Source of the DNA: Iphione sp. A-MEVVRFRX5
Taxonomy: Eukaryota
Direction: 5' to 3'
Assembly: GCA_976226885.1 (NCBI GenBank)
Contig: OZ320321.1
Location: 4,154,001 to 4,218,000, forward strand
Length of the DNA: 64,000 bases
Both the position numbers and the translations under genes were made by a program. Of the stretch, positions 9,177 to 59,879 are shown one piece after another. Positions within the stretch are counted from its first letter, which is position 1. Every line of letters begins with the position of its first letter. Under the pieces are notes generated by a model. It was given only the letters and a program-made list of their open reading frames with translations. It ran no database searches and was not told the DNA's origin.

Positions 9177-9384
9177 CCCTATAAGGACCGTACATAGAGA
9201 TTTCGTTCATATTTGAACGATGGGTTTTCTATGATTTTCTTTTAGTCATTAAAGTGATGTACCGATTATGTTCAATAAAAGTGATATATGAGTAATGAGA
9301 AATGTTGATTTATATTATTTGTTCCATTATGACGTATTAGAATGTGTTCCAAAGCGATCGAATGTTACCATCTCGTAACACATT

Positions 9385-25134: not shown

Positions 25135-25152
25135 TAGTGGCAGTGGTGGGAT
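25135..25152 (+). other. Primer-binding site of Gypsy A, tRNA-Leu-like
   Basis: TAGTGGCAGTGGTGGGAT resembles TGGTGGCAGCGGTGGGAT and lies 2 nt after the LTR end. Confidence 0.7.
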
Positions 25153-25168
25153 CTTCTCTCCAGAAACT

Positions 25169-29880: not shown

Positions 29881-30362
29881 GAAGCCATGCTCGGACTTGT
29901 CAGAGTTTTGAGGTCAGAGCCCGGTGAAGTGGGCCACCTGGATACCGGTGTTCAGCCGCCACTAGCCCCAACCGGCTGGTATAGGTGCCGCCAAGGGCGG
30001 CACCCTGAGCAGACCAAGCTGTCGCCGCCGCATTCTCCTCATGCTGCAATGCCCCCCTCCCGGGGACTTCCACCTTTAAAGTGGATTCCCCAGGGGTGGG
30101 TGGACCTGGTAGCTCTGGAACTACGTGTACTTAGTGATCGGACCTGTCAAGTTCTTCAGCCCCTCCCCTCTCGGTTACTACAACACCGGGAGGGAGAGCT
30201 GTCCTGTCCTCCCAAAAGATTTCACTGGATAATGTGGAGATTGAAGGGCTTGAGGGAGACGCTGCAGCAGCACTATAGGCGGCGAGCCACTGACCACCTG
30301 ATCCAAGTCCTCCGCCCAGAGCCAACCACAGCCTGGCGGAGCACGCCCAGTCAACCCGCTCT

Positions 30363-30467
30363 GGGCGGAGGTTATACCGCACTCTGCCTGTCCCCAGCCA
30401 ATCAGAATCGAGTGCGGGAACATTAAGCCAATCAGTGACTGGCAAAGCTCTGTGCCGGAGGATATAA
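30363..30467 (+). promoter_or_regulatory. Candidate internal Pol II promoter in Gypsy A (GC box, two CCAAT boxes, TATA)
   Basis: GGGCGG 30363, CCAAT 30398 and 30428, TATAA 30463; Kozak-context ATG at 30732. Confidence 0.55.
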
Positions 30468-30731
30468 GGAGGTGGCGTTGCAGGAGGCGGTTCATGGCCG
30501 AACTCTGCCATGTCACCACAGCTTTCCCAGAGTCCAGCCGGAGGTTGCCCAAGCCATCCAGTGGAGAGAGTAGGGTTGTTCTGCCCACTGGAGGTCACCC
30601 CAGCTGCTGGAGCCTGCCAACCCCTCCTGCTGGAGCTCGCTTGACCCACCCGAGCCCGCCGACAGTCTCCGCCAGAGTAAGCTCAACCCACCGGAGCCTG
30701 CATTGCCAGAGTACCTATCGGCGAGCCTGAC

Positions 30732-32440: not shown

Positions 32441-33037
32441 TAGATGAGGCAGGGAAGGACCATCGCAGGGGGGGGCCGAGCCAACCCTCCCCTGGCTACC
32501 AGCACCCCAGCTCCAGCTGGACCCTCCCGACCGGGGATAAGGATGGGCCCGACCGTGGACTTAACCAAGAAGGCAGGGGCCAAACCTGGCGCCTCCAGGC
32601 AACTACAAATGAACCCGACTGAGGTGCCTGGGCTGGTCGTCCACTGGGCTTAGGCCCGGGTGGTCACTCCTCTCATCACTCCCCCTGCTGGATGGTGGTT
32701 ACTCACCACTAGAGGGACAGCCACCGTCACCCCTCAGGTGAACAGTACGTTGGTGTGGATCTGGCAGGGGGTGGCTACAGGAGCAGGGGCGCGAGGAGCC
32801 CTGAGTGCATCCCGTGTGAGTGTTTTCCGAACTTACCATGCATGTTCCTGAAGTAGACCAACTGGACTTATCACTTGACAAAGAATTTCAAGTGACATTG
32901 GATAAGCCTAGGGGGGACCATTAGAGGTCCCCAAATAGATAAATCTTAAATAAGTAAGGTCATATTCTCTTTATTCATGCTGTTGTGGTTGACAATGTTG
33001 GCTCAGGGACTGAGCCAACTTGGGCGGAGTTCGCTCG

Positions 33038-34500
33038 TGTGACGTTCTACACTCCCCTTTTGGAGGAGTTTTTAGATTTTTTTTTTTTTGGGAGGATGTC
33101 ACTTTCCTGAGGGATCGATAGGGTGGGTATTGTGGAGCAAAGCACCTCCTACCTTGGGGTTTTCTTCTCGAATCCTGGATTCCTTTCTTCTTCTGTGGTC
33201 CAGGGCGGCCTCCAGTCCTGGATCTTTTAGTCTTGAATCTGATGTTTTCTTTTTCCAGCAGGAATTAATAAAGTTTTGTGTTCATACACCTGACCTGTGT
33301 TGGTTGATTTTGGTTTTGAAGAGGCTTAAGATTATCACCCTCACAGAGTAATGTAGAAGATGAAATAGAGGAACGAGGACCCTGAGTGTAGGGTTTCGAG
33401 GGCTTTATTCCGAGTACATCAGTTGGATGATATGCTTTTCCCCTCTGACAGTAGAGCTAAGCTGGCAGACGTGTGGCAGGATGAACTTACATTTGGTGTC
33501 AGGTTCGGGACTTACGAGGCAGACCAGAGCCTGTGGATTCAAGTCCTGGGCAGGAGGGTTGGAGTCCTTCTTAGTCGGGAGTCCTCCCGACTGGGCAGCT
33601 GCCAGTAAAAGACCGGAGGATAGGTGGTTCCTCCAGCAGGGCTCTGGCCTGGTCTCGGCCACTCAAAAATGCTGGGTACTGAATCTCTTATTTCGCAACC
33701 CTAACTGATTTTAAAACTCTCTCTCCTCTGGGGAAGATGTGCAGCCTCTTTATATACGTCCCTGGTCCCAGGCTCTCCCTTCGCATTGGCTGAAAAGGGG
33801 CTATTCTGATTGGACGGTTGGGGGAGAGAACTGCTCTGATTGGCTCACATAAGTAAGCACCCCACGTTGAGGCCCAAGAGATCAAAGGGATTCCAGGTAA
33901 AGACAGATGGGGGCCCTAGAAATTGCACAATCCGTTGGTGAAGACTAATGAGGGCCATAAACGTCAGTTTAAGCTAAAAGTGTACCAGAATTCTCATAAA
34001 GTTTGTACTCAGGGCCATAACGCCTGTCAGTGGCTAGGAAAGATAATTGGATGGGTGATGAGGCAGGAGTCCAGATCCTTTGGAAAGGCAGACATCCGGG
34101 TCTAGCTCATTCAAGGGAGGAACTCGGACCGGAGTCACAAAGACAGGAATTTGTTGAGTATGCTGGACACCCAGAAGTAAGGAGAAAATATTCTTCACCT
34201 GTCAGATTCCTATCAAGTTGAGTTATTAGGAGATAGGAATCTCTTTTGATCTGGTGACTACCCTTCAGATGAGTTGCGAAAGAGAGGGATTACTCACACC
34301 TGCTTAGATTCCTTTGAGTTGCATCATAAAATGTTGGGAATCTGCTGACTGTCTTTTTTGAAGGGAACATTGGTGTCCCTTGAGTGGGAAAGGGTGGGAC
34401 GGGTATATAGTAAATGCTGAGTCGGCACAGAAGGCTCAGATGAGGTTGAATTTGCCTTCCCACAATGGAGTCGATGTTTAAGGGAGTTGTTGATCTAACA
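33038..34500 (-). repeat. 3' LTR of element B (~1.46 kb)
   Basis: Colinear with 57493-58961. On the minus strand: three CCAAT boxes (~33785-33843), TATAAA (~33750-33757), AATAAA (~33404-33409). Confidence 0.95.
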
Positions 34501-34519
34501 CCCTCCCAAGCACTGAAAA
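34501..34519 (-). other. Polypurine tract region of element B
   Basis: Minus strand TTTTCAGTGCTTGGGAGGG abuts the TG of the 3' LTR. Confidence 0.6.
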
Positions 34520-35703
34520 AGCCGTGTTGCCATTACACGGGAAGATATGTCTGAATTGACTACTGTCAGAGAGGAGAGTCATCCAAGACACAGTCACATC
34601 AAGTTTAAAAAAGGGTACAAGTTACATTAAACAATCCGGTAAACAATTTACACACAGATTGATTGCTACAATCTCTGAGATAAAAAAAATCATCATTCAA
34701 TCACTGCCAAGGATAAGCACACAAGCTTCGGTCACCGGTGGTTGTTTATTGTTGCCCAAGATTTTTACCTTCTTGCGCCGGTCGACCTCCACCTGGGTGG
34801 ATCTTGGGGAGTGTCCAGAAACTACACAGCAAACCTAGGTAAGTAACCATTTTCTATGCAATGTGTACTCTGCAGGAAAGACCTCATTAATAAAATAAGA
34901 ACACTCAAGTAGAAACAAATAACTGAACATTTATGGTACTCATCGTGATAGTAAATTACAACATAACCCTAGAAGTGAACTTAGATCAATCCGGTATCAA
35001 GAAGATATTTCCCGTGCGCCGTGTAAGTGATTGTTGACCTTTTACTCATACAGAGGTGTATAATTTCAGGGCTCAGTTTCAATGTTGAAGACCCTTGCGG
35101 TCTTTTTACACATAGTCGTTGGAGGCCAGACTCTCAGTGGAGCTGGCATACGGGAAATGGAACAGCTTGACAATAGGATTCGGTTTTGGAGGCGGGGAGG
35201 TAGCATCTGCGGATGCCGCCTCTTCAACAACATCACTCATGTCCAATCTCGCCAGCAGCTCATGGTAAGTTGGTGGGGAGGAGGCGACAGATTCCGCTTG
35301 GGGAGGAGCATTATTAGGTTTAGGATTTTTCGATTCGATTGGGGGAGAAGAGGGGGTTAGGGGTAGTTTAGGATAAGGTCCATTTTGAAGGAGGTAAGCC
35401 TGTCCCTGCTGTCCAAGGATAAGGGCCTGGGATGGGAGGTCCTGGATGGTGAGCACAAGGGGCTGGATATGCCTACCCTTCCAAAGAGGGACACAGACCG
35501 CCCTTGGGAGAATAACCTTACGAGTAGAGATGGAGTCTGATTGGTACAGGGGGTTGGAATACGTAAGCCGAACCAGATAAGTAAAACATTGTCGCTCAAC
35601 CTGAATGGTGAGAACCTTGGGGACCAGAAAAGTAATAGTAGGGAGGGCATTCGTCCGAAACTCATGGAGGAGAAGGGTAGCATGATCTTTTGGGGACCCA
35701 ATT

Positions 35704-37752
35704 TTAAGCAGGATCTGGAATCCCGAGGGAGAAGGTACAGGGCCCGTTTCTGTAGATTTCGCTTTGCAGTATCTTTTGGATGGCGTCTACATGATCAAGG
35801 AGCTCATTGTCCTTGGGAGGCAAGGTGGGCCCAGGTCTATGTGTCGCTCCCAGCAGGACCGGTGTTGCCCTTGCTGCCGGTGCTAGGGCAAGGGACAAGG
35901 TAAGGGTGTTTATCTTTTGAAAGAGGTGGATAAGGCCAAAGAGAAGGAGGAGGGTCACTGCAGAGTGAATAGAGTTCCATGCCCACATAATGGGGGTAGC
36001 CACAGTTCGGGCTTGACTGGAAGTCCAGTTTGGCCAGTATGCCATTTCCTTCTCCTGTCTTATCCTGATCTGTCGAGATTGTTCTATTTTGCGGGCTATT
36101 TTGTCAAGGTCTACGCCTGTGTGATCGGGGAGGGACTGCGACAAGTTAAATAAGGAAGAGGAATTAGATGTGAATATCAAACAGGAAGAAGTCCTTGAAA
36201 GTAGCAGAGGCAGTGAAATTTGGTAGGGAGAGATTGAAGGCTGTGGCAGCTGCTAAATTGATGCCGTTGACTGGCATGATTGCTCGTTCTTTGGTACAGA
36301 ACGCTGATGGAGGCATGTTGTAGGGTCCCACAGTGAGTGAGCAGTTGCACGGGGGTTTATATGTACAGAGAGGACAGTGAACATTAGTGGTTTTTCCTAT
36401 CAGAGTGTCTTCACCGGGTGTGGACCCGCTGATATATTTACTGTATCGTTTAGCCTTTTAAGGTAGGGTGGCATAGTGTCATTGGGGTGAACTGTAAACT
36501 GGCACCGGTGTCTTACAAGATCATGTCTATCATAGAAGAGGCCAAAGAGCAAGTCTGGGTTGCTTAGACATTAATAGGGGGTAGGGTTGTACAGGTGAGG
36601 ACATCATGTCCTTCACAGAAGGATAAGTCATATGGTTCGAGCTCTATAAAGGCAGACTGAAGAGGGCAGACTGCCATGTAGGCTGGCATGCATTGGATCT
36701 TAGTATATCCATGTGTTGTGGTAGTGGGGAGGGGTGTGTTAAAAGTATGAACATGATAAAGGTCAAACTGATCGCCGGGAGTACCTATTGGTACTGAAAC
36801 ATGAAGGAATACGTAATGATTGGAGTACATGAACTTGGTAAGCACGTGTTAGTAAAAAAAACCTCGGTCTGAAATCATTATATTTTCGCAGCCTTTTAGC
36901 TTAATGTTAATTTTTGCTAATCCCCTAGTGAGTTGTGCTGGAGAAATTAGACTGCCAGGAAGTCGCCCTATGCATAAGTCGTTAATCGCCAAGCAGTAAT
37001 GCAAGTACTGCTGTTTTGCTTGATGGAGAGTGTTGATTTTTAGTAGGAGAGTGGAGAAATAGTGAGTTGCCTCTGTTACTGCGTCTATAAGGCTTGATTG
37101 ATTTTGGAGAAGGTGTTCAGTTTGCTTTGCTATCTGGTCAGCCTGGTGAATTATGTTGGTTATGGCCTGATCATGGCGGTGTGTCTGTTGGAGAATTGCT
37201 TGGACGGTAGTGGCGGTACTGTTGGATAGTTGTGCCAGTTGGTCCTGCAGCTCTCCAAAGCGAATTTGGCTGTTTACAGCATCTAGGGTGTCAATTCATT
37301 TAGCCAGAGCATGAATATCATCCATGGTTGCCGTTCCAAATATGTACTTGGATAGAGTTCCCATGAAGCCAAATGGTGCTCTTGGCTGTTTTCGCGTATC
37401 GTATGTAGTTGGAGCAACCAAAAGGTTCTGGAACTGCTGGTTTTCATCCACCGTTTCCGCGAAAACAGACATATATTTTATGAGTCCTGCATATGAAAAC
37501 TTCCAATCTGGAACATGCCGCGTGCCATGAGCAAGGTAAAGGTTTGATGGGAGGCTTGATGAGCTTATGGTGCGGAAAGGGGGCTGGTCTTGGTATGACA
37601 AAAAGGAGATCCACGCTTCTCGTGTTGACGAGGATTGGAGTTGACATCTTTTCGTAGAGGACGCCAAAGTTTTGTCTTAATATATATTTAGATCATGCTG
37701 CTGGTGTTAAGACAGCGACGAGTAGAAAAATGACTTGCGTCACGATAGTAAC
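35704..37752 (-). pseudogene. env: env-like class I fusion glycoprotein (errantivirus env / baculovirus F-like)
   Basis: Signal-like VIFLLVAVLTPAA; RQNFGVLYEK; basic cleavage site RKQPR followed by APFGFMGTLSKYIFGTATMDD; heptad region; Cys-rich ectodomain; TM-like AVTLLLLFGLIHLF; stops/frameshifts. Confidence 0.82.
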
Positions 37753-40700
37753 CTGGAAAGAAATATTTCATTGTCTCTATGCCTTCAGATTGTTTTTTTT
37801 TTTTGTATCCGTCTTAAATGACTGCGGTGGTTCCTTGAGGTGTTATTATGCCTTGAAGTGGTGTTGTCCTAAGTGACTAATGTAGTGCCACCCAAGCACT
37901 GAAAATTCAAGTTCTACCACTGAGCTTTGAGGAGAAATAAACTCTAACGCTTTGTGAGTATATTTTCGGAGAGTGCTTCATTTGACTGAAGGCAAGAAAG
38001 GGTGCAGGGGGGGGGGTGTGTAGGTGAAATTGAGTTTTGGGGCAGTAATGGGGTTCTTATAGATCTTCTTCAAGATTAAAGAGAGTTTGTGCTGCCACTT
38101 CTTCAAGGGCTTGCTGGGCTGCTCTATAGTTCTTGAAAGGGCCATGATGGCCTGTTTGTGCACGTAGTGCCAAACAACAAAGATAGTCCCAATAGGGGAT
38201 GTCATTCGGAGCGTAGTTTGGAGCACGTTCAGTGTCCAGATATCGGACGAGGTCTTCACGAGTGCGTGCTGCAATGTTTGGTTTAAAGACATCTAAAGTC
38301 AGGGTGTCCGTCAAGTTGAGGGCTCGGCCCGTTAAGGCATCCCTGTAGAGGGTGGAATTACGGCTTTTACGACGGAGGAGATTTCTGTGATGAGTGTCAG
38401 TAGTGTAGTCTCGCTGGATGGTAGGCCAGGAGATAGGGGGGGTAATATCAGGCGGGCATTCGTCAGTGAAGAAGTGGATGCCTTCACATGCAGATTCCTC
38501 TACGGCTCATTTCTCATGCCACATGAGCCCGATATGCGGCTTGAGCTTCTTCCTGGAGAAATGGTCTGTCCAGAAATTCGGTAGAGAAGACTCTTTTCAC
38601 TTTGGCGTGGGGAAGTGTTGGATGAGGGGGAGGGAAATAATTTGTGAAATGGTAGCCTGGGCGGTATGATAGGGGAATAACATAGGTAGGTTCAGGTGGG
38701 GTGGGAGAGGTTGCGCTAGAGGATGGGGGTGTGGGGGATGCAGTGGGAGAAGGCGAAGTACTAGTATCATGTGAGGCATCCGTGCCATTGGAAGGGGTTG
38801 GTCAGAAAGGTTCCGAGGCTGAACGAGGTGGGTAAGAGTGATTTTCAGAAGGGGGCCAGGTAGATTCAAGGGAGTGCGACTGAAAGGTAGGTCCTGGCAT
38901 TGGGTCTGGAGAGGGGGAGGCGGGGGTTGAGGGGAGGCTTGGGTTGTATGACGTAGATATGGGTGCCGAATTGAGGGATGAAAGAGGGGTAGAATGATTG
39001 GAGAGCGAAGAAGTGGGAGCGGGGATTGAAAGGTGGAGGGTGCCGTTCAAAACAGAGGAAGACGGGTAGATTGGGAGGGAGAATGAGGAAGTCTGCATGG
39101 ATGCTGGCTAAGGGAGGGCAAATCGTGGCAGGGGAAGGTCCAGAGGGCTAGAATGGGGGTGGGGTAAATGGGGATGGAGAGGGGGAACTATAGCAAGGTT
39201 ACGGGGAGGGCGAGGGTCTGGGAGAGTGGTTTCAAGGTGGGCCTGCTCGTGTGAAAGGGGGAGAACGGGTGTATGAGAGGGTCGAGTGACTGAGCGGGGG
39301 GATAGCATTAGTCGTGTTCTTCCCCCATGAGGGTGTCTAGTCGCCAGATATCGGTTAAATTCGTTGAAGAAAACGTTGAGCAAATCGTCAGATGGTTGAA
39401 AGTCCCTAAAAACAGAGAGGATATGTGGTAGTTCCGGTCTGAATCATTTAGTTGTAGATTCAAGATCAGGAAATATGTTTTTGGGTGGGTGATGGGAGTG
39501 TATGGGGGCAGGACAGTCTCTTAGGGAAATCGGAGAGGTCTTACATTGAGTTGGGGGCGTTGACTGGTGAGGGGATGGGTGCCTTTGGGGGGGGAGGGTA
39601 ACTGTAAGGAAAAAGGAAGGGGGGGTCAGGCAAGGTGGATCGGGGACTGATAGAGGTAGGTTCCAGGTGGTATCCACAAAAGAGTAAGGCCTACCTCAAA
39701 GCCATGATGGTTGTTGGTGATTGAGGTGTTTGTTGATTTGATGGAGATTTAGCCTGGGTTGATACGTGAAGAATGTGTTCCGTAATTCCTGGTTTTAAAG
39801 TGAGCATGAAGGGTGACTCGAGGAGGAGGGCGTTGGTTGACGCAATTGATATAGAGCGCTAAGGCCGAGAATATGGATTGAGAAATCCAAAATTCTGAGT
39901 TCCAAAAAGGCTGGATGCAAAGGTTTGAGTGGTGTCGGGCAGTTTTCACGACAAAGCTTATATACTTATCGCTAGGGGATAGTCCAGGATAGGGGAAGGA
40001 GTGTCCATTGTAACAGGGGTGAGAGGTGCACTTGGTACTAGCGAGAGTGAAGATGTTTTATGGTAATGAGCATGAGATAAAAAGACGATTAAAAGGGAGT
40101 GATATAGTATACCTAAGTCAGTGAAAAAGGTGGGGGAACCATAGATCTGTGGTCGCGAGTCGCCAAGGAACACGGCGGTAGGGGGAGGTTGTCATAACAG
40201 GTGGTAACGTGTTGTGAGAGGGGGAGATAGCAGATAATGAGCAGGAGGACTGTGTTGGTCGGGCAGTAAAAAGGCAAGGGGAGGGAGAAAAATAGTCTTG
40301 AAAGAAGTATAGTTTGTTCTCGACCCGGGATAAAGGAACCTACAACGATCATATGGATGGACGAGAGAAGGGAACAGGTGAGTGTCGAACAGGTGTAAAG
40401 CCGGGATGAGAATGGGAAACAATTATGCTGTACCCATGACAGTAGGTAAGGGGCTAAGTATTCTCTTGGGGTGGGTGAGAGACGGGGGTATCGGGGGAGG
40501 GGGCATAGTAAACGGGACAGATTGACCTGATTGGGATGGGAGTGAGGCTACATTTGTACATTGGATCGTTGGAGCTGTGAAGGAGTAGCTCACGGGTCAA
40601 GAGAACGCATAATGGACACGCTAAGAAATGCTCTGCGACAGGTGTGGGTGTTTGCCCGGAGCGTTGGGGTGCTCCTGGGTCTAGTCGGAGAGGGGGGCTT

Positions 40701-44479: not shown

Positions 44480-45772
44480 CATTTTTTTGTTGTTGAGACA
44501 ATAGAGAAAGGCGGGTCGGGGGGCAGTATACAAATGTCGATTTCCTTATTGGGCGGGATCCTCTTCCTCCAGGTCGCGGAGGTCCTCCATGCTGAGGGGA
44601 CGGTTGACTGTCGTGGACACCGCCCGGAATTGCTGCCTGGGGAGTACCCGCATGTCGTTAAGCAGCCTGTGTCGCCAGGTCAAGAAGAACATCCAACTCC
44701 TGCTGGTCAAGGGTGCGGCGGCGAGCTTGGTGCCGGAGGGTTTCTATGTGGAGGATGGTGGTGTTGTGTGCGGAGAGCTCGTCCTCCTCGCGCAGGTTCC
44801 AGTCAGCGGGGGTTCCTGGGCGTTGGGCCCCCGACAAGAGAAAGTAAGGCCTATCCCTAAGGGGCCCTAAAGTGTCTGCGGTTATCGTCTGCCCAGTAGA
44901 TATGGCCTCAACGGTCGCCAGGCTGAGGGAGGCGATGTTTCTCTGCTGCTGGGACCAGGCTCGCCAGTCTGGGGTAATGTTGATACGTACGGGTCGAGTA
45001 GGCGGGTATCGTGCCAGACCAACATAAGGGCGCACAGTCCCTTCAGCAATGGCCTGAAGCCACTGGTCAAACAGGGTGACAGGGTGGTTGGCATCCTGGG
45101 GTGGTGGGACAGGTCCTTCGGCAGGCTGATCCCTCCGAGTCATCGTCAGAATCTAACCGTCATCGTTGTCGGGGAGGGGAGCCCGGGGGTGGCGCAGCTT
45201 GAGCTCTAGACGGTCCAGGTTGTGGTTCTTCATCACTCCTCCTCCTCCTGCCTCTGCTGACGCCCTCTGCGTCTCCTGGTGTTTCTCTGTCGCAGAGGAA
45301 CAGGGTCTCCCTCTCGACCCCACCAGGCGTTCATGAGGTTGCGAACCTCCATGCGTGCAGCCTTGGGTGCCCTTTGGGCCGGCAACCTCCACCCCGCTGA
45401 GTCCAGCCCAAAAAGATGGTGAAGGTTGGGCACACACAAGTGTGCCGCTGACACATGAAAGCTGTGGACATGGCTCTCCCAAGCCGTGTAGTCCCTCAAA
45501 TAAGCTTTGCCCTCGCACCACAGGCATGCCATATATTGCCACATTCTGGTTCCTCATACAGGCAAATGGTGCACCCTTCGGAGATGACGGTTGAGGTTTG
45601 ACTGGGTGTTAAATAGTTTGTGCTGGCAATGAGTGCAGCGGAGTCCTTTCGCCATTACAGATGAAGAGACGCTGTTAAGTGGGTTTACGTTCCAGTTCAA
45701 GGGTTGCTGGGAGTGAGATAAGTTTGTGTGACGTGGGAAATTCAAACTCGAGACGTACGTGGTTCGAGACAT
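44480..45772 (-). pseudogene. Element B accessory ORF: two C2H2 fingers followed by an unknown domain
   Basis: CTHC-x13-HLRRVH, an in-frame TGA, then CLWC-x13-HVHSFH. A frameshift leads to NLDRLELKLRHP, which is in frame (one stop) with ORF 44658..45143. Confidence 0.6.
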
Positions 45773-46063: not shown

Positions 46064-46691
46064 GGCGAAGGGAGGGTAAAACTCAGAGTGGCTTTAGAGG
46101 CCAAGTATGGTAGGTCATGGAAAGTAGGGCAGTTGTTACGTCAGAGCGGTGTCGGTGGGTGTACGAGTATAGGGACAGAGTCAGAGAGGCATTAAAGGGG
46201 GCGCCAGAGGCAGTAAATACCGTGGTCACAGTTCAAATGTTATGGGCCTGGCCTGAGATGCGTTAGCGAGGTAAAGTATTATGCTGATGGGGAAAGTGGC
46301 CTGAAATGAGGTAATCTTCTTAAAGGAGGGGGGGGGGACGAAGTCAGGAGAAGGTGACTGGGGGGTGGTGAGGTAAACACCATTTCTATGTGTGAATCCG
46401 TAGATTAAGTACCAGTTATGGTATCTCAATTAAATATTTTAATCCTGACCACAGGTTATGCGTGGTCGGGTGTATATAAATAGAGTGCACCTGAAGGGCG
46501 GTGGTATGGCCAAAGCTTAATCACTAGACTTCCTGGGAGAACTCTCTTGAGTGCCAGTCGGCCCTCATCGGGGTCACATATGAATATTCAAACTCTGGGT
46601 CTTGCTTCCTAATTGTAGTTGCAAGACAGCACATATAGTCTTTTGATTTTAGGGCATAAGGGGAAGTTCGCGTAGACGGCGACGTTGTTGT

Positions 46692-47042
46692 TTATTGTAG
46701 ATTGTATTCACGGCCTTCATGCAAATACTCTATAAGGAGGGCTACTAAGCATATTTGTAATAGTGGAGATTCCAAGTTAAAGAATAATCCCGCTGGATGA
46801 TAGTCGTAAAGTCTCCAATGAGATATGTAATCAGAGAGCCTGAGAATCATCCTATACCGCATATAGGTTGTAATGTCAGGGTGTCGCAGGCCTGTTCCTA
46901 CCTTGTAAAAATGTCGGAGGAGAGCCAATACACAGTCTGATAGGACAGGGGCTCCTCCATACTGAAGGTGTTGTTTCCTCTGCATATATTGCCTAAGGTT
47001 AAGAGATCTGAAGAGGACCGGATATCTCATCTGAGGCCACAT
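46692..47042 (-). CDS. Accessory ORF P3 (116 aa from MWPQMR, unknown family, shorter)
   Basis: APVLSDC...GLRHP...FFNLESPLLQ; splice acceptor 2 nt before ATG at 47042. Confidence 0.66.
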   Translation of the reverse strand: MWPQMRYPVLFRSLNLRQYMQRKQHLQYGGAPVLSDCVLALLRHFYKVGTGLRHPDITTYMRYRMILRLSDYISHWRLYDYHPAGLFFNLESPLLQICLVALLIEYLHEGREYNLQ

Positions 47043-48527
47043 ACCTAAAAAGGGAGGGATCGGGGGATATGCACAGTGATCCGTGTTGATAGTGTACATG
47101 AGTGAAAGAGTCGTGTATCCTTTCAGGGGCTGGGGTCGGCAGAGAGGAAAAAGGAGGGGGGGGGGGAAACAGATGATGAAAACCGGGCTGGTGGTTGGTT
47201 TTCATTAGGGTATTACTTGTCATAGAATTTGTATATGTTGCTTTTAAATGCTTGTCGGTCTTACGCCCGATTGTTTGATGTCATTCCCTTTTTTTTTTTT
47301 TCTCTGAGGTCGTAATCGGGGCTGCCTGGAGCCCTGATGAGGCAGGGGCCACTTGGCCTGAGGCAGAGGAGGGGCGCTTAACAGGTAAGTAAGAAAGGTT
47401 ACATGACTGTGGTAGCTTTAACGTAATTATCCTCTTGGTCCATTATTCTGGAATGTCGTTTATGGTGAGGAAGGCAGAGGTCATATTATTAAAGGTGGGG
47501 GGGGGGGGCAAGGGTGATCCTTCATATTGGTGCTTTTTAATGTTCTGTCTTTCACCCTTCTTCTAGAAGTCATGGTGGAGGAGGCACTACCATCTCCCGG
47601 AGAGAGCCTCCCTGAGATGGAAGGGGTGGGGCTCCCCAGACAAGAAGTGGGGGCCCTGCGGCTGGCGTGGGTTCTCCACAGCGGTGAGTGGACAGTTTCT
47701 TGTTTTTGGTTGTTTGCCGATTCCATTTCCTTTTCGCATAGGTTGGGTTCACAAAAAGGAAAGGGGAGCCAATTTTGGAAGGAGCGGGGGGGGGGGGTGG
47801 GGGGAAGGAGAAGTAGGGGGGGATGTTATCCCACCAAAAGGGAAGGGGTAGCCTCCGTTGTTTTGTTTTGGGTAGAGTAACGTTATGCTACAAAAAGGGG
47901 GGGGGCATAGGATATCATGTGTGATCCTGGTGCTAATATTTTTATTTCTGTATGTCTTTTACAGGAGTCACAGTCATGCGGGAACACCCAGAGGAGGGAG
48001 AGCGGGGGCTATGTCAGCGGCGACGCCCGGCAAGAGAAGAGCTCCCCTGCTAAAAGATTCATCATTTTGCTTGAAGTAGATGGGAGTAGGTTTTAGTAGG
48101 GGGAAAGGGGGGGAATATTCATTTTAGTTCAAGGGGTATTTTCATAATCATCCTTGTAGTGCATTGTCAGATCCTTTATATTTATTTTTGTACTTTTTTC
48201 CTACATATATATTTTTATCATTAAACCTTCCTTATTGTTCTTAATCCTGCTTGCGTTTTTGTGTGATGCCTCCTGACTGACGTCCCTCTCCATTCATCTG
48301 ATGTGAGTTTGCAGTGGAGCCTTCATGTTTTTAGGATAGTTTTATAAAACTCGAACTGCAGTAAAGGAGGTTGCATTTTTTTTTATAGTATACGGGTGTT
48401 AGTTCCTTGAGATGTCCATGACTATTAGGAAGTACCCTCGGCATGTTTTCTATATCTCCCCTTTATTACGTACTCCTTTATCAATAATGTGCAATATAAG
48501 CATGCCTCAGAATCATTCCCTAGGACT

Positions 48528-49079
48528 TTACGGCATGGTAGAGAATGTTAGCATATGGGGGGGGGGGCATGGTGAGGAGAACAGAGTACCAACAAGAAAG
48601 CGGGGTTGTGTGGGGTAAGTGGAGAACCTATTCCTATAGATGAGCACCACTCGTACAGCTGCTTCGCGGATGGGGTTGTTGGATTTTATATAACAGAACG
48701 CCGAAAATTGTTTGTGAAGTGCAAGCATAATCAGGGTATCCCACGAAGGCAGAAAGTGTCGCGGGAGCCGAGGCTTGTTATAAGTACGGAGATAGTGTTC
48801 TATGAGAGTAGACAAGGGGATCTGAACCAGAGTAAGGTCCAGGTTGAAGAAGGAAGATCGCCAAGAGGTCAGTTGGTCAGAGACCGATGCAAAATTGTCA
48901 CACGCAAGGTGTTCCAGCAGAAGATGACGGCCCATAGAAGAGAGTGAGGGGTGTCGCAGGCCCGTATGAGTTTGAAACAAAGCCCTGACAAGTTCATAGA
49001 TGCAATCTCTCAACGCAGGTTGTTTCCCTTTGCATAGCTGATCTGCCCTATGTTGCAGGCGCCCTCGACATCTGGACAT
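48528..49079 (-). CDS. Accessory ORF P2 (183 aa, unknown family)
   Basis: Intact; QPALRDC...GLRHP...FFNLDLTLVQ...PSWDTLIMLAL; splice acceptor 2 nt before ATG. Confidence 0.72.
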   Translation of the reverse strand: MSRCRGRLQHRADQLCKGKQPALRDCIYELVRALFQTHTGLRHPSLSSMGRHLLLEHLACDNFASVSDQLTSWRSSFFNLDLTLVQIPLSTLIEHYLRTYNKPRLPRHFLPSWDTLIMLALHKQFSAFCYIKSNNPIREAAVRVVLIYRNRFSTYPTQPRFLVGTLFSSPCPPPHMLTFSTMP

Positions 49080-49206
49080 ATCTAAAAAGAGGAGAACCCG
49101 ATTGTTGGCTCTATAAAATAGTGTAATGGGGGTTAGGTGGAGTCATTCTTTTGTCCTTTTTCCTAAGGGAAATTCATCTTTATGTAACCTAAGTCAATGA
49201 CTAACC

Positions 49207-49758
49207 CTAACTTTCTGTTCTTACTACTTTGCAGGAGGGCCAGGCAAGGGTTTCCCATTCATCCGCGGAGACAGGGTTTCGCCTAAACAAGCCTGCAGTG
49301 CAGGATTTCGGGGTTGGAGATCCTGTTCCCTTAAGATAGGTCTCAATTGCCTTGATAGCAGCTTGGTTCCTCCAGGAAGGGCCATAGGGAACCTGACATC
49401 GTTCTTCACAAAGAGCCAACATGATGAGAGTGTCCCATGTCGGAAAGAATATTGGGGGTAAGTGCGGTTCTATTCCATGTTCCAGGTATGTTTGTATATT
49501 CCGCCTTAAAGCCAGCTGTACAAGAGGTAGCTCAAGCTTGAAAAAGTGGGAGTTTCGGTCAATACCGGCCATGTCTGGTTTGTTAACACACAAAGTGAGT
49601 CTGCATAGGAAGTCCCTTCTTTCTACAGAGGAGATGCAGGGGTGTCGCAACCCCTGGGTTGGTCTGAATAGAAGAAAAGAGAGGTGTGGAATGCAGTCTT
49701 TCAGTGTAGGAAGTCTACCATTTCTTAGGACGCGCTCTCGACTGTAGATGGAGGCCAT
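49207..49758 (-). CDS. Accessory ORF P1 (183 aa, unknown family, paralog of P2/P3)
   Basis: Intact; motif LP.L.DC...GLRHP...FF.LEL.LVQ..L...PTWDTLIMLAL; splice acceptor 3 nt before ATG. Confidence 0.72.
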   Translation of the reverse strand: MASIYSRERVLRNGRLPTLKDCIPHLSFLLFRPTQGLRHPCISSVERRDFLCRLTLCVNKPDMAGIDRNSHFFKLELPLVQLALRRNIQTYLEHGIEPHLPPIFFPTWDTLIMLALCEERCQVPYGPSWRNQAAIKAIETYLKGTGSPTPKSCTAGLFRRNPVSADEWETLAWPSCKVVRTES

Positions 49759-50658: not shown

Positions 50659-53600
50659 TCAGTGTCCCTTTTTAACGAATAATTTCCGAGCAAGAGACTT
50701 CCATCGAGATGTAACCAACTGAGCAGGGGGAGAGGCTTGAGGAGTTGATTTTGTGGCCAGAGTATGGACAGAGGACCAAAGGCGACGACTGCATCTTAGA
50801 TTCAATGCAGGGGGCGGGCTCAGAGGTGTTCCAGAGGAGGGTGACTCAACCTTGGAGGTCTGGGGGCCTGGGGGTCCAGGATAAATAAAGGGGTCATTCC
50901 CCTCAGGATCCTCTTTGGGGTTCTTCCAAACAATTATCTTCTTTGTTCCCGGAGGAATGGTGAATTTCTCAAGTTTGACTACAGGATTCATGTCGTGCAG
51001 TTGATTGGCCTCACTAGGGGAGGGCGATTTACGAGTTCGTTCCATAAAGCGAATCACACCCTCATCTTTTTCTGTATCGGAATCCTGAGTGTCAGGGGAA
51101 GAAGAATCAGAGGAAGTCTGTTCCTCTACCTGTGTATTTGAGGGAGACTCCTCCTCTTCCTGTTCCAACCCGGGCAAGCCAAATCCGACATCAAAGTCCT
51201 CAGGATCAAGTGGTTTATCCTCCGTCACAAATTTGTCAGGGACAGCCACTTTAGTGGATTCGGGGGAGGCTGGCAGATCCTCTTCTCCCAGGGAAATTAG
51301 AATTGCCAGAGAAGGGTCTTCTTCTGGGCTGGTGCGCATAGGAGTTTTCAAGGGGGGTAATAACTGCGTCCTCCTGGGAGGAAATAGGGCTGACTGAGCC
51401 ACATAGTCCCGTGGATTGGGGACTGTCCGGGGGTAGGTCTTCGTGGGAAAGATTCTCATTATGTATTTCTTTGTTAATCATAGGCCCCACAGTCCTGTTC
51501 ATTTCAGGCGGCTGGTGGTGACTGGTCGAGAGAGATGACGGTTTGTCTGGAGACATTTCAGATAAACCGTAGAGGGGGTGTGGAATTCTGTAATGGCATA
51601 GGGCCCATGATAGACTCGGGCCAGCTTCAGCTTGAGGAAAGGATCCCTAAGCTGTGGCATGTAAAGCCAAACCATGTCTCCCTTCTTTAGTTCAGGGCTA
51701 TAGGCCCTGTCATCAAATTGGTCCTTCATGACGACAGAGTATTTCTCTGCAGTCTCCTCAGCAGCCAAATTAGCCTGATGTTGGGTATGGAGATGCTCCC
51801 CCAACCTTTCCTGGACCGACATTGGTTCATCCTCAGGAAGAGGAACTGAATCCATTTCTGGACGGCACGGCTCATAGCCATTCAGAAGAAGGTAGGGGCT
51901 CTGACCGGTTCTAGGGGCCTTAGTGGTGTTTAATGCAAAGCAGATAGATGGAAGACAAACGTCCCAATTGTTCTGATTTTTACTTACGTAATTTCGAAGG
52001 ACTGTCAGAAAGGAGCGGTTAGCCCTTTCCACTAACCCTGAGGTTTTGGGGTGACCTGCTGTAGTGAACTTTTGTTTCATTCCATTTTGTCGGCAGTAGT
52101 TCATAAAGCGGTCCGATATGAAAGCTGAGCCGTTGTCCGATACTATAGTGTTGACGGTGCCAAAACAGTAGACAACATGTTCTTTAAATTTGGAAATGAG
52201 AGTGTCTGCCCGTAAGTCCGGTTGGGCCTTTTCCTGTTGATGGCAATCCCTCAATGGCATCCATACTTATGGTGTTCCAAGGAGTGGGAGCGGGGTCTTG
52301 GAGAGTGAGGGGGGGCCTAATCGGCCTGGTCATTCGTGTTGTTTGACAACACCTCACGCAGGTGGCATAGTAGTCATGTACATCCTCACTCATTCCTGTC
52401 CAAAACAAGGTCTCCCTCATTTTAGATAGCATTTTCACCAGACCTAGGTGGCCTGCATGGGGGGTGTCATGGTTTTGCTGAAGAAACTTTTCTCTAAGAA
52501 GACATTTTGAACAGAACACTTTGATAGAGGAAGAAATCTTCCTCTCTGAGAAGCACCCAAGCACCGTTTTGTCATCAAGAGGCTACCATACTTGATGAAT
52601 GAAACGGTTTGTTTACAAAAGGCATCGTTCCTTTGGGCTTCCAGAATCTCTGATAAAGGGATATGGGAAGATTTGAGAAGCCTTTCTGCTCCCGATTGAA
52701 GGACAAACTGTCTCTCTCTCCTCTTTCGATTGTTAGGCCCCTTCTTGGCAAGGAGGGGGTCCGTAGGTTTATCTTCAGAGGTGCCGGGATCCGGCATCAC
52801 TTCCACTGCTCCAGTGGGAAGAGGGGAGGGGGAGGATTTGGAGGCTTCCAGGGATATTTGTGACATGGGGGTGCGGTCTTTCTTGATGGGAACATTGAGC
52901 CTGGACAATGCATCAGGTACTGCATTGGAGGCACCTGGGACATTGGACTGTATAATTGAAGGGCTGAAGGAATTCCATCCAGCGAATCACCCTTGTGTCC
53001 TTGTGCTCCAAGGACTTGGTTACAAGAATGTGAACTAAGGGGTTGTGGTCCGTTTGTATACAGAACTTTGCGCCCTCGAGATAGACCTTCCAGTGCTTTA
53101 CGGCATAGAAAACAGCAGCCATCTCCTTGTCTGTGGTCGAGTAATTGAGCTGCACTCCCTGAAATGCTTTTGCCCGAAAGGCAACAGGTTGGATATTCCC
53201 TGAGTTGTCTCTCTGGGACAGGCTGGCGCCCATGCCGTAGTTACTGGCGTCCATGGCGAGAAAGAATTCTCGACCAAAATCAGGGTAGACGAGGAGTTGG
53301 TCGTCCATACATGCTTGCTTGAGTGTTTGAAATGCCTCCTCCTGGGTTGGGCCCCAGAGAAATGGAACATGTTTTCTAGTTAGGTCGTAAAGGGGCTTAG
53401 CCTTCAGGCCGTATTTTGGGATAAACTTTCGGTAGTACCCTGTCATTCTCAAGAATCGTCGCACCTGTCAGACAGTTACTGGCATCTTCATGTCCTGTAT
53501 TTTGGCAATGTTGTCGGGTGCTGGTCTGATTCCATCAGTCATGATAATGTGACCTAAAAATTTGACTTCTGCACGACTGATTTCACATTTAGAAGGTTTT

Positions 53601-54942
53601 AATTTAAGCCCGGCTGCAATAAGTCTGTCCAAAACCTGACCAAGATCTCTCATATGTCTCTCAAAAGTGGGAGAGAAGACAACGATATCATCCATATAGG
53701 CAAGGCAGATTTTGTACTTAAGACCGGACAGAACCATGTCCACAATGCTCTAGAAAGATGCAGGGGAGTTTTTGAGTCCCATAGGCATGGTCTTATAACG
53801 GTATTTGCCGGTGGGAGGCAGAAAGGCAGTCTTATCTCTATCCTCATCTCGAATGGGAATCTGGTGGAAGCCCTTTTCTAAATCCATTACCGAAAGGAAT
53901 TGAGGTTTGCCGTTGCCGACGGCATCAATTATGTCGTCAACTCGAGGAATGGTGAACATCTGGATGACTGTCTGAGTGTTTAAGTTCCAGTAGTCCACAA
54001 CTAACCGAAACTTACCATTTGGTTTAAGAACTAGAAACCTCCTGCCTTTTCTAATATTCCTTTGCTTTCCTAGTCGGAGACAATGCGATGAAGCTCATCT
54101 CTCATCATTGGCAACATACGAAAAGGTTGGGCTTGGGTGGGGGTACAGTCAGGGGTAAGCTCAATACGGTGTTGGACTAAGGAGGTCCTTCCAACCGTTC
54201 CATCAAGGGAAAAAGCCTCCCATCTGGAGTGAAGGAGCTGTTGGCAGATCTCTCTCTGCCTAGGAGTGAAATTAGACTCAGAAAGATCTACAGGGATGTC
54301 AGGGGGGGTTGGATGGGGTCTAACGGGGGGTGTTTTGTGTGAGAGCAGAAACGTCATAAGGAACTCCTTCAGTGAACAACCCAACTCGAAGACCTCTTCA
54401 CAAGCTTTGAGGCTTCTGAGAGTAGTTAAGAAGGGAGATGGGTACCCGGTTATTGTGGACTCTGACTAGGGTTTCCTTGTTGGAGACGACCGGCCTAGGG
54501 GTAGCTTTTAGAGTGTCCCTATACATTCCTTCCTCAGAGTCAAATGACTCCCCATTTCCCAGTATCAGTGCCCACACCAAGGTCTCAGACCTGGGCTGGA
54601 GCAAAATATCCACTGGCAGGATGACAGCGAAGGTCTCTTGAGGTTGGGGGGTGAAGAAAAGGTTGATAGAGAACTGGTGTAAAAAGGTTTGTCCCAAAAT
54701 GATGTCATAAGACAAGTTGTTAAGGACATGGAGTTGGACCGGATAAAGGAAATTGTCAATAGGGATTTAGATGTGAACGATATTGGTGGTTTTTGACACA
54801 GTGCCATTCGCCATAATACACTCAGCGTTTGTTGGAACAACCTTTAGGTCAACATTTTCTTTTCGCAGCCGCTCGAAGGCAACTTGACTCAAGCAACATC
54901 TCTGAGTGCCTGTGTCGATTAATGCTCTGAACAAGGCACCTC
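50659..54942 (-). pseudogene. pol: Element B pol (PR, RT, RNase H, integrase, long acidic/Pro tail)
   Basis: ALIDTG, YDIILG, VMDLEKGFHQI, MPMGLKNSPASF, LAYMDDIVV, MDASNYGMGA, HDTPHAGHLG..CVRC, VSDNGSAF, HPKTSGLVERAN, YHGPY, tail with LRCSRRL. Confidence 0.93.
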
Positions 54943-55832
54943 CTAGTTTAAGTTCACTGGTACAATCAGGTGTGAAGGGGTGGCAAACGACTTCCGATCA
55001 GGAGCACTACTAGTTCTAGTCATATGGACCACCCTTTTTGTATTATGGCCCTTTACGGTCTCTGTTTTTGAGACTATTCCCAGAATTTCCTGGAGTTTGG
55101 GAGGGAGTTTGAAATCCGAAAAGAGCTGATGGTGATGAATCTCGTCGGGAAGCATAAAATGTTCGCCACCTGTAGGACAAGCTGGAATCCTCCCACACCT
55201 TGGCTTGAGTGTTTTTCGTGTAATCTTTGTACTCCAGAAAGTTACAGCATCATGGACACAAGTTTCCATGAACTCACAGTCAGGTCTACATTCACCCTGT
55301 TTGTGCTTGATGATAGATGACTGTATCAACATGAGAATGTGGTACTCAAGGCTATTAATACAATGGCACAATCACATTTCAACAAAACATTACCCTCCGG
55401 GTCTAACTCGGAAAGGCAAATACAATGATTAGGACAGTGTGAACAGTCAAAACAGAAGGATCATTTGTCAGCAATGATCGGGTTATTGTCCAGTACCTTA
55501 GTTCTACTCTGCTTGTGGGAAAACCTTCTAGGGCAGAGAGGGTGTGATTTTACAGTATGATACCGGAGGCTCTTAACCCATCCCAACCTTTCTTCTGGCT
55601 GCCGTGTCAAGGGTCGGGTCAGGATCAAGAGAAACCCTTTTTTATCACAGTCTGGGGGAAAAGGGGGGTTAAATGGGCTATCAGGGGAAGGACAAGGATG
55701 GTGGGGGCTTGACGGACAGGGGTTATGAGGGGTTTCACAATTCAGGTGAAAATGGGCCAGCATATCTTTCATTGCTTCATCCCATGGGTCACCAGTGTGG
55801 GACTCCCAACACTTGGGCTCGTTAGGAGCCAC
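54943..55832 (-). pseudogene. Cys/His-rich region between gag and protease
   Basis: ORFs 55461..55832 and 54943..55371; the latter is in frame with ALIDTG (protease) after one stop. Confidence 0.45.
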
Positions 55833-55834
55833 AC

Positions 55835-57434
55835 CTAGTTTCCCGCTTCTGGTGTTTTATTCTTAGCCAGGTGATCAATTTCCCTCTTTATCTGGTCCAT
55901 GATATGCTCCATCGCCATGATCTGGCCATTTCGAGGGTCAGGGTTGTATTGATCCAATGAAAGGGGGTAACGGTCAAAGTAAGGGAGGGTAGGGGAGTTC
56001 TGGTAAGTTGAAGGGTATGAGTTAAAGGGAAGACAAGGGCAGTATTGACAGGGATTAGGGCCGTGAGGACGGTAACCCCCGCGTGGTCGGCCCTCAAAAT
56101 GGGGTTTGGGGGCCACTACCTCTTTCCAAATCTCTCTTCTTAGTGTTACATTCTGGCGCAAAGTGCCCTGGATTGTGGCAGTAGTAACAAATCACAGTGG
56201 AATTGTCTGGAGGCAGAGGAAAGCCCACTGGAGTCCCTTGAGGAGGAGCAGTAGGGACCGGGACTGGTCTTTGAGCGGTTGGGGTGGGGCCTGTACCTGA
56301 GCATTTGAGGGGTGAAGGACAGGCGCCGGAGTGGCTGGGGATGTTCCTCCCAGAGTCTTAAGAGCATAGGTCATTATTTCGCCCGACAAGTCCTGCATAA
56401 TTTCTTTCGTGAGGGCGTTGACGATAGACTCCATGTCGGAAAGTCTCTTGCGTAAACCTCCCTGATGCCGCCAACGCTTGCAGACATCTTGCACAGCATG
56501 ATGAAAGGAAGGGACATCCCTATGGTCCATCATTTCTCTAAGCTTGGGGAGGATGTTTTCCATAAATATTCTCCCAGCCTTCTCATCACTGTCCTGGCCC
56601 ACTGCTATGCACACCCTCATGAGCCTATCCGCAAACTCACTGGGTGTCTCATCCCTTCGTTGCTTACAGCCTCGCAACCTTTCCGAAATTTCAGAACCTG
56701 AGGGACCCTTTTCTTTTAAAAGGAATGCTTTAAGAGTTTCCCAGTATCAGTGGCAGGCAATGTGAATGTGAAGAGTTCGGGGACAGAAGGCGCTTATCTT
56801 CTTGAAACACCTATGGATATAGGCGGGCCGGCGGGCATTTCCCTCTCCCTCTAACTGGGTACCATAAACAGCCTTCATATAGTCCTCATCATTGGGGAAA
56901 ATTAGGGAACATACCCAGCTTTCTTGGCTTAACAGTCAGTCTTTTGGTTAGAGCCTCTATTATATCACCTTCTGCCATTCTATCATGCGTACGCCTAGTT
57001 CCCACAGAAACAGCAGGGTTAGAACTTACTGATGGTCTGAAAGCAGGCAAATGAATCGGTGCTTGTGTCGAGCGTGGCTGCCTCGATGGTCCGGGCTGAG
57101 GGGAAGTACTTCGTGGCGTAATGAAGATCTGTCGACGGCTGGTAAAGGGGACTGTGGTTGTCGACTTAGGAGTTGATGTCTTTTGACGACAAGGGAAGGA
57201 AATTTCACCGGAGGAATCGTCACGAGATGCTGACTGTCCGGAAGACGAAGAGGAGGAGCGCCTGGTGTGGGTGTGCAGTAGATGGGGCCCCAATGGAATC
57301 TGAGGGCTGTCTGATGGGGAAGGAGAAAGAGTGGTGCGGCCTCTGGTCGAGGAGCAACTGCGCCATTCGCTAGCTGGGATGTGTGGTTTCCCGGAGGTGA
57401 CGCTCCTAGTGACAGGCGGGGAGCTGTCTGCCAT
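55835..57434 (-). pseudogene. gag: Element B gag
   Basis: Ser/Pro/Arg-rich N-terminus; capsid-like CKQRRDETPSEFADRL...IFMENILPKLR; RGG-rich end; frameshifts; no canonical CCHC seen. Confidence 0.75.
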
Positions 57435-57472: not shown

Positions 57473-57491
57473 GTGCCCGGGTTCTCCACCA
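57473..57491 (-). other. Primer-binding site of element B (tRNA-Ala-like)
   Basis: Minus strand TGGTGGAGAACCCGGGCAC, 1 nt inside the 5' LTR; complementary to a ...TCTCCACCA tRNA end. Confidence 0.7.
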
Positions 57492-57492
57492 G

Positions 57493-58961
57493 TGTGACGT
57501 TCTACACTCTGATCTTGGAGGAGTTCTTAGATTTTTTTTTTTTTTTTGAGGATGTCACTTTCCTCAGGGATCAATAGGGTGGGTATTGTGCAGGAAAGCA
57601 TCTCCGGGTTTTCTTCTCGAATCCTGGATTCCTTTCTTCTTCCGTGGTCAAGGGCGGCCTCCAGTCCTGGATCTTTTAGTCTTGAATCTGATGTTTTCTT
57701 TTTCCAGCAGGAATTAATAAAGTTTTGTGTTCATACACCTAACCTGTGTTGGTTGATTTTAGTTTTGAAGAGGCTTAAGATTATCACCTTCACAGAGTGA
57801 TGAAGAAGATGAAATAGAGGAACGAGGACCCTGAGTGTAGGGTTTCGAGGGCTTTATTCCGAGTACATCAGTGGGACGATACTCTTTTCCCCTCTGACAG
57901 TAAAGCTAAGCTGGCAGACGTGTGGCAGGATGAACTTACATTTGGTGGTGGGTTCAGGACTTACGAGGCAGACCAGAGCCTGTGGATCCAAGTCCGTGGC
58001 AGGAGGGTTGGAGTCCTTCTTAGTCGGGAGTCTTCCCGACTGGGCAGCTGCCAGTAAAAGACCAGAGGATAGGTGGCTCCTACAGCAGGGCTCTGGCCTG
58101 GTCTCGGCCACTCAAAAATGCTGGGTACTGAATCTCATATTTCGCAACCCTAACTGATTTTAAAACTCTCTCTCCTCTGGGGAAGATGTGCAGCCTCTTT
58201 ATATACGTCCCTGGTCCCAGGCTCTCCCTTCTTACTGGCTGAAAAGGGGCTATTCTGATTGGATGGTTGGGAGAGAGAACTGCTCTGATTGGCTCACATA
58301 AGTAAGCACCCCAAAGTGAGGCCCAAGATATCAAAGGGATTCCAGGTAAAGACAGATGGGGGCCCTAGAAATTGCACAATCCATTGGTGAAGACTAATGA
58401 GGGCCATAAACGTCAGTTTAAGCTAAAAGTGTACCAGAATTCTCATAAAGTTTGTACTCAGGGCCATAACGCCTGTCAGTAGCTAGGAAAGATAATTGGA
58501 TGGGTGATGAGGCAGGAGTCCAGGTCCTTTGGAAAGGCCGACATCCGGGTCTAGCTCATTCGAGGGAGGAACTCGGGCTGGAGTCACAAAGACAGGAATT
58601 TGTTGAGTATGCTGGACACCCAGAAGTAGGGCCATAAAGAAGGAGAAAATATTCTTCACCTGTCGGATTCCTATCGAGTTGAGTTATTAGGAGATAGGAA
58701 TCTCTTTTGATCTGGTGACTACCCTTCAGATGGGTTGCGAAAGAAAGGGATTACTCACACCTGCTTAGATTGCTTTGAGTTGCATCATAAAATGTTGGGA
58801 ATCTGCTGACTGTCTTTTTTGAAGGGAACGTTGGTGTCCCTGGAGTGGGAAAGGGTGGGACAGGTATATAGTAAATGCCGAGTCGGCATGGAAGGCTCAG
58901 ATGAGGTCGAATTCGCCTTCCCACAATGGAGTCGATGTTTAAGAGAGTTGTTGATCTAACA
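57493..58961 (-). repeat. 5' LTR of element B
   Basis: Colinear with 33038-34500, with scattered, mostly transition, differences. Confidence 0.95.
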
Positions 58962-59879
58962 CTCGCATTACTGGAGTTGAAGTCAGGCTCCGCACGGAGT
59001 GACAGTTTTGTATAAATAGTGGGCCAGGCAGTGCTTCCTAGTCATTAGTGTTCTACATCTTCAGAAATAAACTGCATCAAAGTTACTCAGCTAGTTGTGT
59101 CTCTTGGATCAGGGCATACATTATCAACTAGGTATTGTTATAGGTCTGAGAGAGGTCTAGCCTCTTCTGCTAGTGATAAAAACTAATCAATAATTGTTTA
59201 TGTTGCAAAAGTACATCAAGTCCCATCTTAGTGCAGTGTGAAGAAGTATGATGATGAATGACATTGGAACATTGATTGGAAGTTCATCAAAGATAATTGG
59301 CTCTTGTAGATTTTAATTTTGTATATAGGTCGAAGTTAAGACACACCAACAACACACTGAAGTACAGTTTTAGGCAGCTTTATTCAATCCCATTTTATTT
59401 TTGTACATAGAGTTTTGAATATAAGTTAGACTTATTCGAAAAGATACTTAGAAGTACATACATAAATCAGATGTTGCAGATGTTTCTAGTGTGGTATGTG
59501 ATTTCTTACAATGTATTCTATTGGTATTACAAATGATTGGATTATCTTGCAAGCACCTTCAAATTTTCAAGGAAAGAATAATTATAACATGAAGGGAACA
59601 ACTGACTTCACAACTCAGTCTCATTGAAACTATTGTTGCAAAGAAAAATGTCCAATAATATGGTATTCTGTATTGTAAATGATATATGATAATCAAGTAA
59701 ATAACTCTTTGTAATGCTTGAATGTTCTTCATATATACCTGTTGTATCTAGGATCATTTGATGATAACAAATAATGACAGTCTCACAAAGGAAATAAATT
59801 TCTTTTGCAATTTCCTTGTATACTGGTTAGCAAAGTGTGTTTGAAAATTCTGCAATCCAAGTGGGAATCAAACTTCCAT

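Follow-up and report, generated by a model that had tools for sequence, protein, structure and literature searches.

In complex retroviruses, genes of the vif, vpr and vpu type occupy the stretch from pol to env, and a separate 3′ splice site precedes each of them. Metazoan env-carrying Ty3/gypsy errantiviruses, as surveyed by Chary and Hayashi (PMC13524379), have the layout LTR-gag-pol-env, a Pol ordered PR-RT-RH-INT and an F-type-like env, and occur in invertebrate hosts as many near-identical copies. Elements were admitted to their survey if POL and ENV were no more than 1000 nt apart and the total length did not exceed 10 kb (PMC13524379). Telomeric retroelements are described as non-LTR or Penelope-like, except for Ty5 and the secondary targeting of Ty1 to silent chromatin (PMC4700185, PMC10088271), and centromeric LTR elements are the subject of PMC11541908.

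The elements described here share the errantivirus traits listed above, the F-type env as a probable one, but they are 21-34 kb long and have 9-20 kb between pol and env. The 1000-nt pol-env limit places them outside the errantivirus survey, and assignment to errantiviruses by the working criterion of an env within ~1 kb of pol was rejected on the 9-20 kb gap (PMC13524379). The strings ‘telomer’, ‘splice’ and ‘accessory’ are absent from the main text of that paper. Literature searches, with Repbase and closed journals outside their scope, found no earlier account of such elements, and we consider it probable that they are undescribed. We lean towards reading them as a previously undescribed clade of enveloped gypsy elements, 20-35 kb in length, with spliced accessory genes of a new fold and with docking motifs replacing the chromodomain (PxVxL for HP1, plus FPLYP in a telomere subfamily).

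The window, meaning the whole stretch of 64,000 nucleotides that was analysed, contains a 25,926-bp env-bearing Ty3/gypsy element on its minus strand, host to three genes here called P1, P2 and P3. The order along that strand is gag, pol, P1, P2, P3, a spacer of ~7 kb, a Pro-rich pre-env ORF and env. The features are as follows.

33033..33036, with the second copy at 58963-58966, no strand: 4-bp target-site duplication of non-telomeric sequence
57492..58962, minus: 5′ LTR with TG...CA ends, 94.2% identical to the 3′ LTR
57473..57490, minus: likely primer-binding site, one base past the 5′ LTR
55838..57434, minus: gag, broken
50659..55847, minus: pol, broken, with Cys/His-rich leader, PR, RT, RNase H, integrase and a long low-complexity tail
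50971..50985, minus: PxVxL motif within the integrase tail (FPLYP is absent from the window copy)
49207..49758, minus: P1, 183 aa, with an acceptor-like YAG 3 nt upstream of its ATG and an acidic-Trp tail
48528..49079, minus: P2, 183 aa, with YAG 2 nt upstream of its ATG and no acidic-Trp tail
46548..47042, minus: P3, open for 116 aa (46692-47042), with an in-frame stop at 46692-46694
44658-45152 and 45233-45553, minus: two spacer ORFs (164 and 106 aa), no Pfam match
38057..39410, minus: pre-env ORF, broken, with a Pro-rich region, a CxxC..C knuckle and a distant P-family domain (38060-38506)
35109..37743, minus: env, broken, with a weak Baculo_F match (E 0.04); 899 aa in sister copies
33037..34501, minus: 3′ LTR, with a polypurine tract just before it

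Membership of Ty3/gypsy (Metaviridae) is indicated by the TG...CA LTRs, target-site duplication, primer-binding site, polypurine tract and PR-RT-RH-INT order. Pfam finds RVT_1, RT_RNaseH, rve and a weak SH3_Tf2-1 in the window pol, and sequence comparison gives matches to gypsy Pol proteins. The 899-aa env ORF of sister copies has N-terminal and internal hydrophobic segments; env is a probable F-type protein on the strength of its weak Baculo_F match. The element is nested inside an older gypsy element, broken and GC-rich, that is seen at 25000-33000 and 63800 of the window. Since its duplication is non-telomeric, the window copy is not inserted in telomere repeats.

Several other features were noted. 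A Cys/His-rich domain upstream of the Pol protease is present in the window (54958-55847), in L029 (6773-8362) and in the outside Pol proteins P0001, P0002 and P0004; a Pfam search with the window fragment gave no match. The spacer ORFs have relatives of 37-45% identity in L184 and L185, and in L185 one family occurs twice. Positions 1-5605 of the window hold a tandem duplication of 3.3 kb, in which sub-repeats of 456 bp and 28 bp occur, and the ORFs at 6872-9213, 11385-11894 and 20061-22936 resemble an RT of Penelope type, a transposase of piggyBac type and an endonuclease-RT LINE. Elsewhere in the genome, at G000:C4:89642397-89642808, lie nuclear COX1 fragments, likely a NUMT. The COX1 of this genome reads in the invertebrate mitochondrial code (AGA/AGG in frame, AAA at conserved Lys, ATA at conserved Met) and appears annelid-like.

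The original prediction, made from the letters of the window, was of three diverged paralogs forming an expanded accessory gene family. The named motifs do align, across 24 invariant columns, with identities to P1 of 35% for P2 and 30% for P3. For P3 the paralogy held and the size of 116 aa did not: similarity extends beyond the in-frame stop to ~46548, sister subfamilies encode 210 aa with an Arg-rich tail, and the window P3 is a broken copy of that protein. A fourth, distant member of the family was found in the pre-env ORF at 38060-38506 (HHalign 96%).

The original prediction also set the unbroken P1 and P2 against gag, pol and env with their many stops. The observation is correct for the window copy, where gag, pol and env have 24 in-frame stops inside HSPs plus frame changes, and where the pre-env ORF and P3 are likewise broken. 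At this break density the probability of no breaks in both P1 and P2 is 0.025-0.068, for a comparison picked in hindsight. Of 19 sister copies, seven have an unbroken P1 core, three an unbroken P2 core and one has both. The intact pair in the decayed window copy is thus probably due to chance, and the contrast counts for little, the copy being in neutral decay.

The genome comprises 1.18 Gb and includes 11 contigs of 56-179 Mb. Searching it with P1 gave 150 scored matches out of 4889 candidates, and one LTR start of the clade has 2170 matches. P genes sit between pol and env in every element read, numbering, with the pre-env member excluded, one in the C type, three in the window type (W), T2 and B, and four in T1 and L087. 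Supported paralog clades common to several subfamilies appear in a tree of 40 natural P members, as expected from the proposal of an expanded family. All fetched members with enough flank lie inside these elements. Two loci, L080 and L089, have P-family ORFs with no pol match in the 10 kb fetched, and may be derivatives that suffered deletions or are non-autonomous.

In subfamily pairs with an estimable dS, P genes have dN/dS values of 0.04-0.34, and integrase plus RNase H values of 0.01-0.07; many other between-subfamily dS values were saturated. Within T1 (T1a versus T1b) the ratios were 0.46 for P1, 0.16 for P2, 0.05 for P3 and 0.01 for integrase. Against its closest sister, L002, the window copy gave 1.06 for P1 and 0.77 for P2, and against other W copies 0.25-0.62. 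No subfamily pair exceeded 1 in whole-gene comparison. Low ratios between subfamilies, with values near 1 against the closest sister, suggest that P genes are kept in replicating lineages and decay after insertion. By these estimates the family is under purifying selection between subfamilies, though less than the integrase; a ratio near 1, which had been named as fatal to the accessory-gene proposal, was not found for the family. The P family is a set of real, selected accessory genes of an env-bearing gypsy variant, with no database match.

YAG lies 2-3 nt before the ATG at 40/40 P starts examined, and 29 of these also pass a cut of at least 70% pyrimidines over a 14-nt tract. The control rate is 161/2104 sense ATGs in 13 loci (7.7%), or 23/407 in the window element. 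P members are related, which limits the independence of this statistic, although intergenic DNA differs widely between paralog clades. A splice donor fitting a strict pattern was found only in the T2 LTR and not in W, T1 or B. With an acceptor-like YAG before every P start, each gene likely stands first among the ORFs of a spliced RNA of its own, and splicing of P RNAs is, judged by sequence signals, very probable. There is a likeness to complex retroviruses in the small genes between pol and env with an acceptor or acceptor-like sequence before each; the present case differs in its Ty3/gypsy Pol, in having no sequence or fold match and in that its genes are paralogs of one family.

The proteins themselves have a helical core and a variable tail. 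AlphaFold2 gives confident models: that of P1 (pLDDT 84.6) has helices only, and that of the pre-env P domain (pLDDT 84.9) is helical. No significant sequence or fold match was found in Pfam, PDB or BFVD, libraries that under-sample animal transposon proteins; the original prediction had not recognised the family either, and the known host family it had named as an alternative source did not appear in the searches run. Hydropathy over 19 residues peaks at 1.64 in full-length members, which have no long hydrophobic or membrane segment; the majority of cores are basic. The invariant residues D, H, Q, W and D could be part of an unrecognised active site. Within the last 22 residues, an acidic-Trp pattern occurs in 27/40 P members and 6/430 other ORFs, counts to be read knowing that the pattern was drawn up after the sequences were seen and that P members are related. 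It is missing from 13/40, including window P2 and the P3 and P4 clades. In three Q1 proteins it is still terminal after 110-170 extra low-complexity residues. By clade, the tails are acidic-Trp in P1 and most others, Arg-rich in P3, Arg/Ser/Pro-rich in Q1, and none of these in P2 and P4.

Arp2/3 binds an acidic motif, and a wide range of other receptors recognises acidic-Trp motifs. Kinesin light chain is bound by W-acidic motifs, that of vaccinia A36 included (PMC6214655). The explanation that we tentatively prefer, at somewhat under even odds as a whole, is that P genes are selected accessory genes with their own spliced RNAs whose products are adaptors recruiting a host factor. Each P protein would be made from its own spliced RNA; the helical core would bind an element component; the short variable tail would recruit a host factor, likeliest transport machinery (kinesin-1 or Arp2/3, via acidic-Trp); and gene duplication would let tails specialise. 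Taken singly, a core-plus-tail adaptor is fairly probable from the sequences, and a partner in transport or cytoskeletal machinery such as kinesin-1 or Arp2/3 is possible but doubtful. The earlier suggestion of host interaction fits the conserved acidic-Trp tail at the level of a motif.

Alternatively, P proteins could be exporters like Rev or CERV that carry 20-35 kb unspliced genomic RNA out of the nucleus, a need that the many acceptors in that RNA would create. In favour are the basic charge of most cores, the Arg run that closes P3 and the Cys knuckle of the pre-env paralog; moreover, Cer1 of C. elegans, also an LTR retrotransposon, employs for export an accessory protein, CERV, from a spliced RNA (PMC10309623), as is predicted here. 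CERV, however, is a single multi-exon protein of 517 aa with different domains and with exons in common with gag (PMC10309623), whereas the P proteins are several single-ORF paralogs of 170-350 aa downstream of pol. One exporter would suffice, yet elements carry up to five P members, and the Arg run is limited to P3 and Q1; we regard export as unlikely. Equally improbable is counter-defence, the anti-defence role raised in the original prediction, for which nothing specific speaks; here P proteins would interfere with piRNA or chromatin silencing or target a restriction factor for degradation. Paralogs gained and lost, P genes that evolve faster than pol, the absence of any database match and the very large size of the clade (those 2170 matches to one LTR start) would suit such a role, but no subfamily pair has a whole-gene dN/dS above 1 and the fold searches gave no known suppressor fold. 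Recruitment of a host factor by adaptors remains the explanation we favour.

The P1 search also drew attention to chromosome ends, since many matches cluster at contig ends at a spacing of 30-40 kb. Stretches on C13, C1 and C8 contain related elements with (CCCTAA)n tracts between them. Telomeric junctions share a single register, CTAA/TTAG, whichever way the element is oriented. Arrays of 21-34 kb T1 and T2 elements in TTAGGG tracts are seen, for example, at L021-L040 and L124-L143. Among the 100 of 141 T1 LTR-start matches listed, 55 follow a polypurine tract and 45 have host flanks, of which, counted by eye, 40 are telomeric (25 exact, 15 variants) and five are not. For T2, 6/10 host flanks are telomeric; for window-type LTR starts, among 100 of 282 matches listed, 0/77 are. 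The LTR-start patterns drop flanks with G eight bases upstream, a slight bias towards telomeric flanks in these counts. T1-like DNA was found in the last 10 kb of 16/21 chromosome ends fetched (two with under 1.5 kb), and the other five have no telomere repeats either. Terminal TTAGGG tracts of up to 5.8 kb persist.

Insertion of T1 and T2 into telomere repeats at a fixed register is a preference, not absolute, and targeting of the repeats is itself very probable. LTR pairs within telomeric elements are 99.7-100% identical and the LTRs of two neighbours 94.7%, which suggests that they integrated recently and separately. Most window-type LTR starts are solo or have host flanks (77 host, 23 polypurine tract, among matches listed); T1 has no such excess (45 and 55), as expected for a young subfamily. 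Host flanks ending in GG beside the LTR number 16/77 for W and 13/45 for T1 (by eye, among matches listed), with the duplicated site changed; the GG at 5′ LTR junctions is possibly a polypurine-derived terminal dinucleotide kept in repair. At L189-L192 (C11:91-148 kb), four near-identical T1 5′ halves alternate in orientation ~19 kb apart, and these inverted copies may be duplications or assembly artefacts. At L166-L170 (C1:108-196 kb), non-telomeric sister elements are nested in a telomere array, inserted outside the repeats.

Integrase tails were compared across the clade. PxVxL followed by E[KR] is present in 77 tails read, in every subfamily read and doubled in the C type, although most tails were located by means of this very pattern and losses would be missed. 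The sequence around it is poorly conserved. PxVxL binds the HP1 chromoshadow domain (PMC8834555). Classification as a chromovirus was tried and rejected: there is no chromodomain after the integrase, the tails in 20 loci, followed as far as the stop codon, are low-complexity with PxVxL, and the window tail has no Pfam match. In the closest outside Pol proteins, P0001-P0007, the terminal segment resembles a chromodomain (Atlas 0.86-0.89, no more than a lead). Unlike gypsy integrases that bear a chromodomain, this clade has a low-complexity PxVxL tail in its place.

FPLYP is confined to the telomere clade. It is found in 29/77 tails, and in a test of 25 cores those with the motif group together as a single clade (support 86), so that its association with the target is one event. 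Among 20 stretches beside telomere-flanked LTRs, 15 have a readable tail and 14 of these have FPLYP. L195 and a B element on C13 are telomeric without it, and four FPLYP elements have non-telomeric flanks. The motif fits the FxLxP TRFH-docking motif (PMC6767372, PMC5309834). We nevertheless give little credence to shelterin docking through FPLYP as the cause of telomere targeting, because the TRFH docking pocket is reported only in vertebrates (PMC8653790). A Pfam search for host TRF gave none, and this blank is uninformative.

P gene content does not track insertion target, and the integrase tail tracks it better. This bears on a third alternative, that P proteins tether the integration complex to telomeres. 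The telomere-inserting T1 does have an extra paralog, P4, but T2, whose three paralogs are those of the window type (0/77 listed), is telomeric (6/10 flanks), and the non-telomeric sister element L167 also carries P1 and P3; a targeting cofactor is very unlikely. One further reading, that P genes are a captured host fragment, neutral filler or a host-domesticated copy, could appeal to the intact P1 and P2 of the decayed window copy (P 0.025-0.068). It is largely refuted and scarcely credible: every fetched member with sufficient flank lies inside an element (L080 and L089 without pol within 10 kb), purifying selection acts between subfamilies and not after insertion (window versus L002 1.06 and 0.77), and no host family matched.

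Of all that was added to the original prediction, the sister subfamily that targets telomere repeats is both the most surprising and the best supported. If the reading is correct, an FPLYP subfamily integrates into TTAGGG and builds arrays of 100-300 kb on most chromosome ends, which would make it an LTR element that targets telomere repeats through its integrase in an animal whose telomeres are canonical. The elements would also bring the splice-controlled accessory layout of complex retroviruses (with splicing predicted) to an animal gypsy element, from an unmatched family. Within one genome, sister subfamilies with integrases 85-87% identical are dispersed (0/77) or telomeric (40/45) among the flanks listed, a contrast that makes integrase target choice and the host cost of 30-kb telomere inserts directly testable.

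In Ty5 of Saccharomyces an integrase-tail motif steers an LTR element to chromosome ends (PMC4700185). The present case is alike in being an LTR element at chromosome ends with a short integrase-tail motif, here in a candidate role; Ty5 differs in being copia-type, without env, directed to silent chromatin via Sir4 and with no fixed repeat register (PMC4700185). TRAS/SART, HeT-A/TART/TAHRE, MoTeR and Athena likewise form retroelement arrays in, or replacing, telomere repeats, but they are non-LTR or Penelope-like (PMC4700185, PMC10088271), whereas the insertions described here have integrase-made 4-bp duplications and occur in both orientations.
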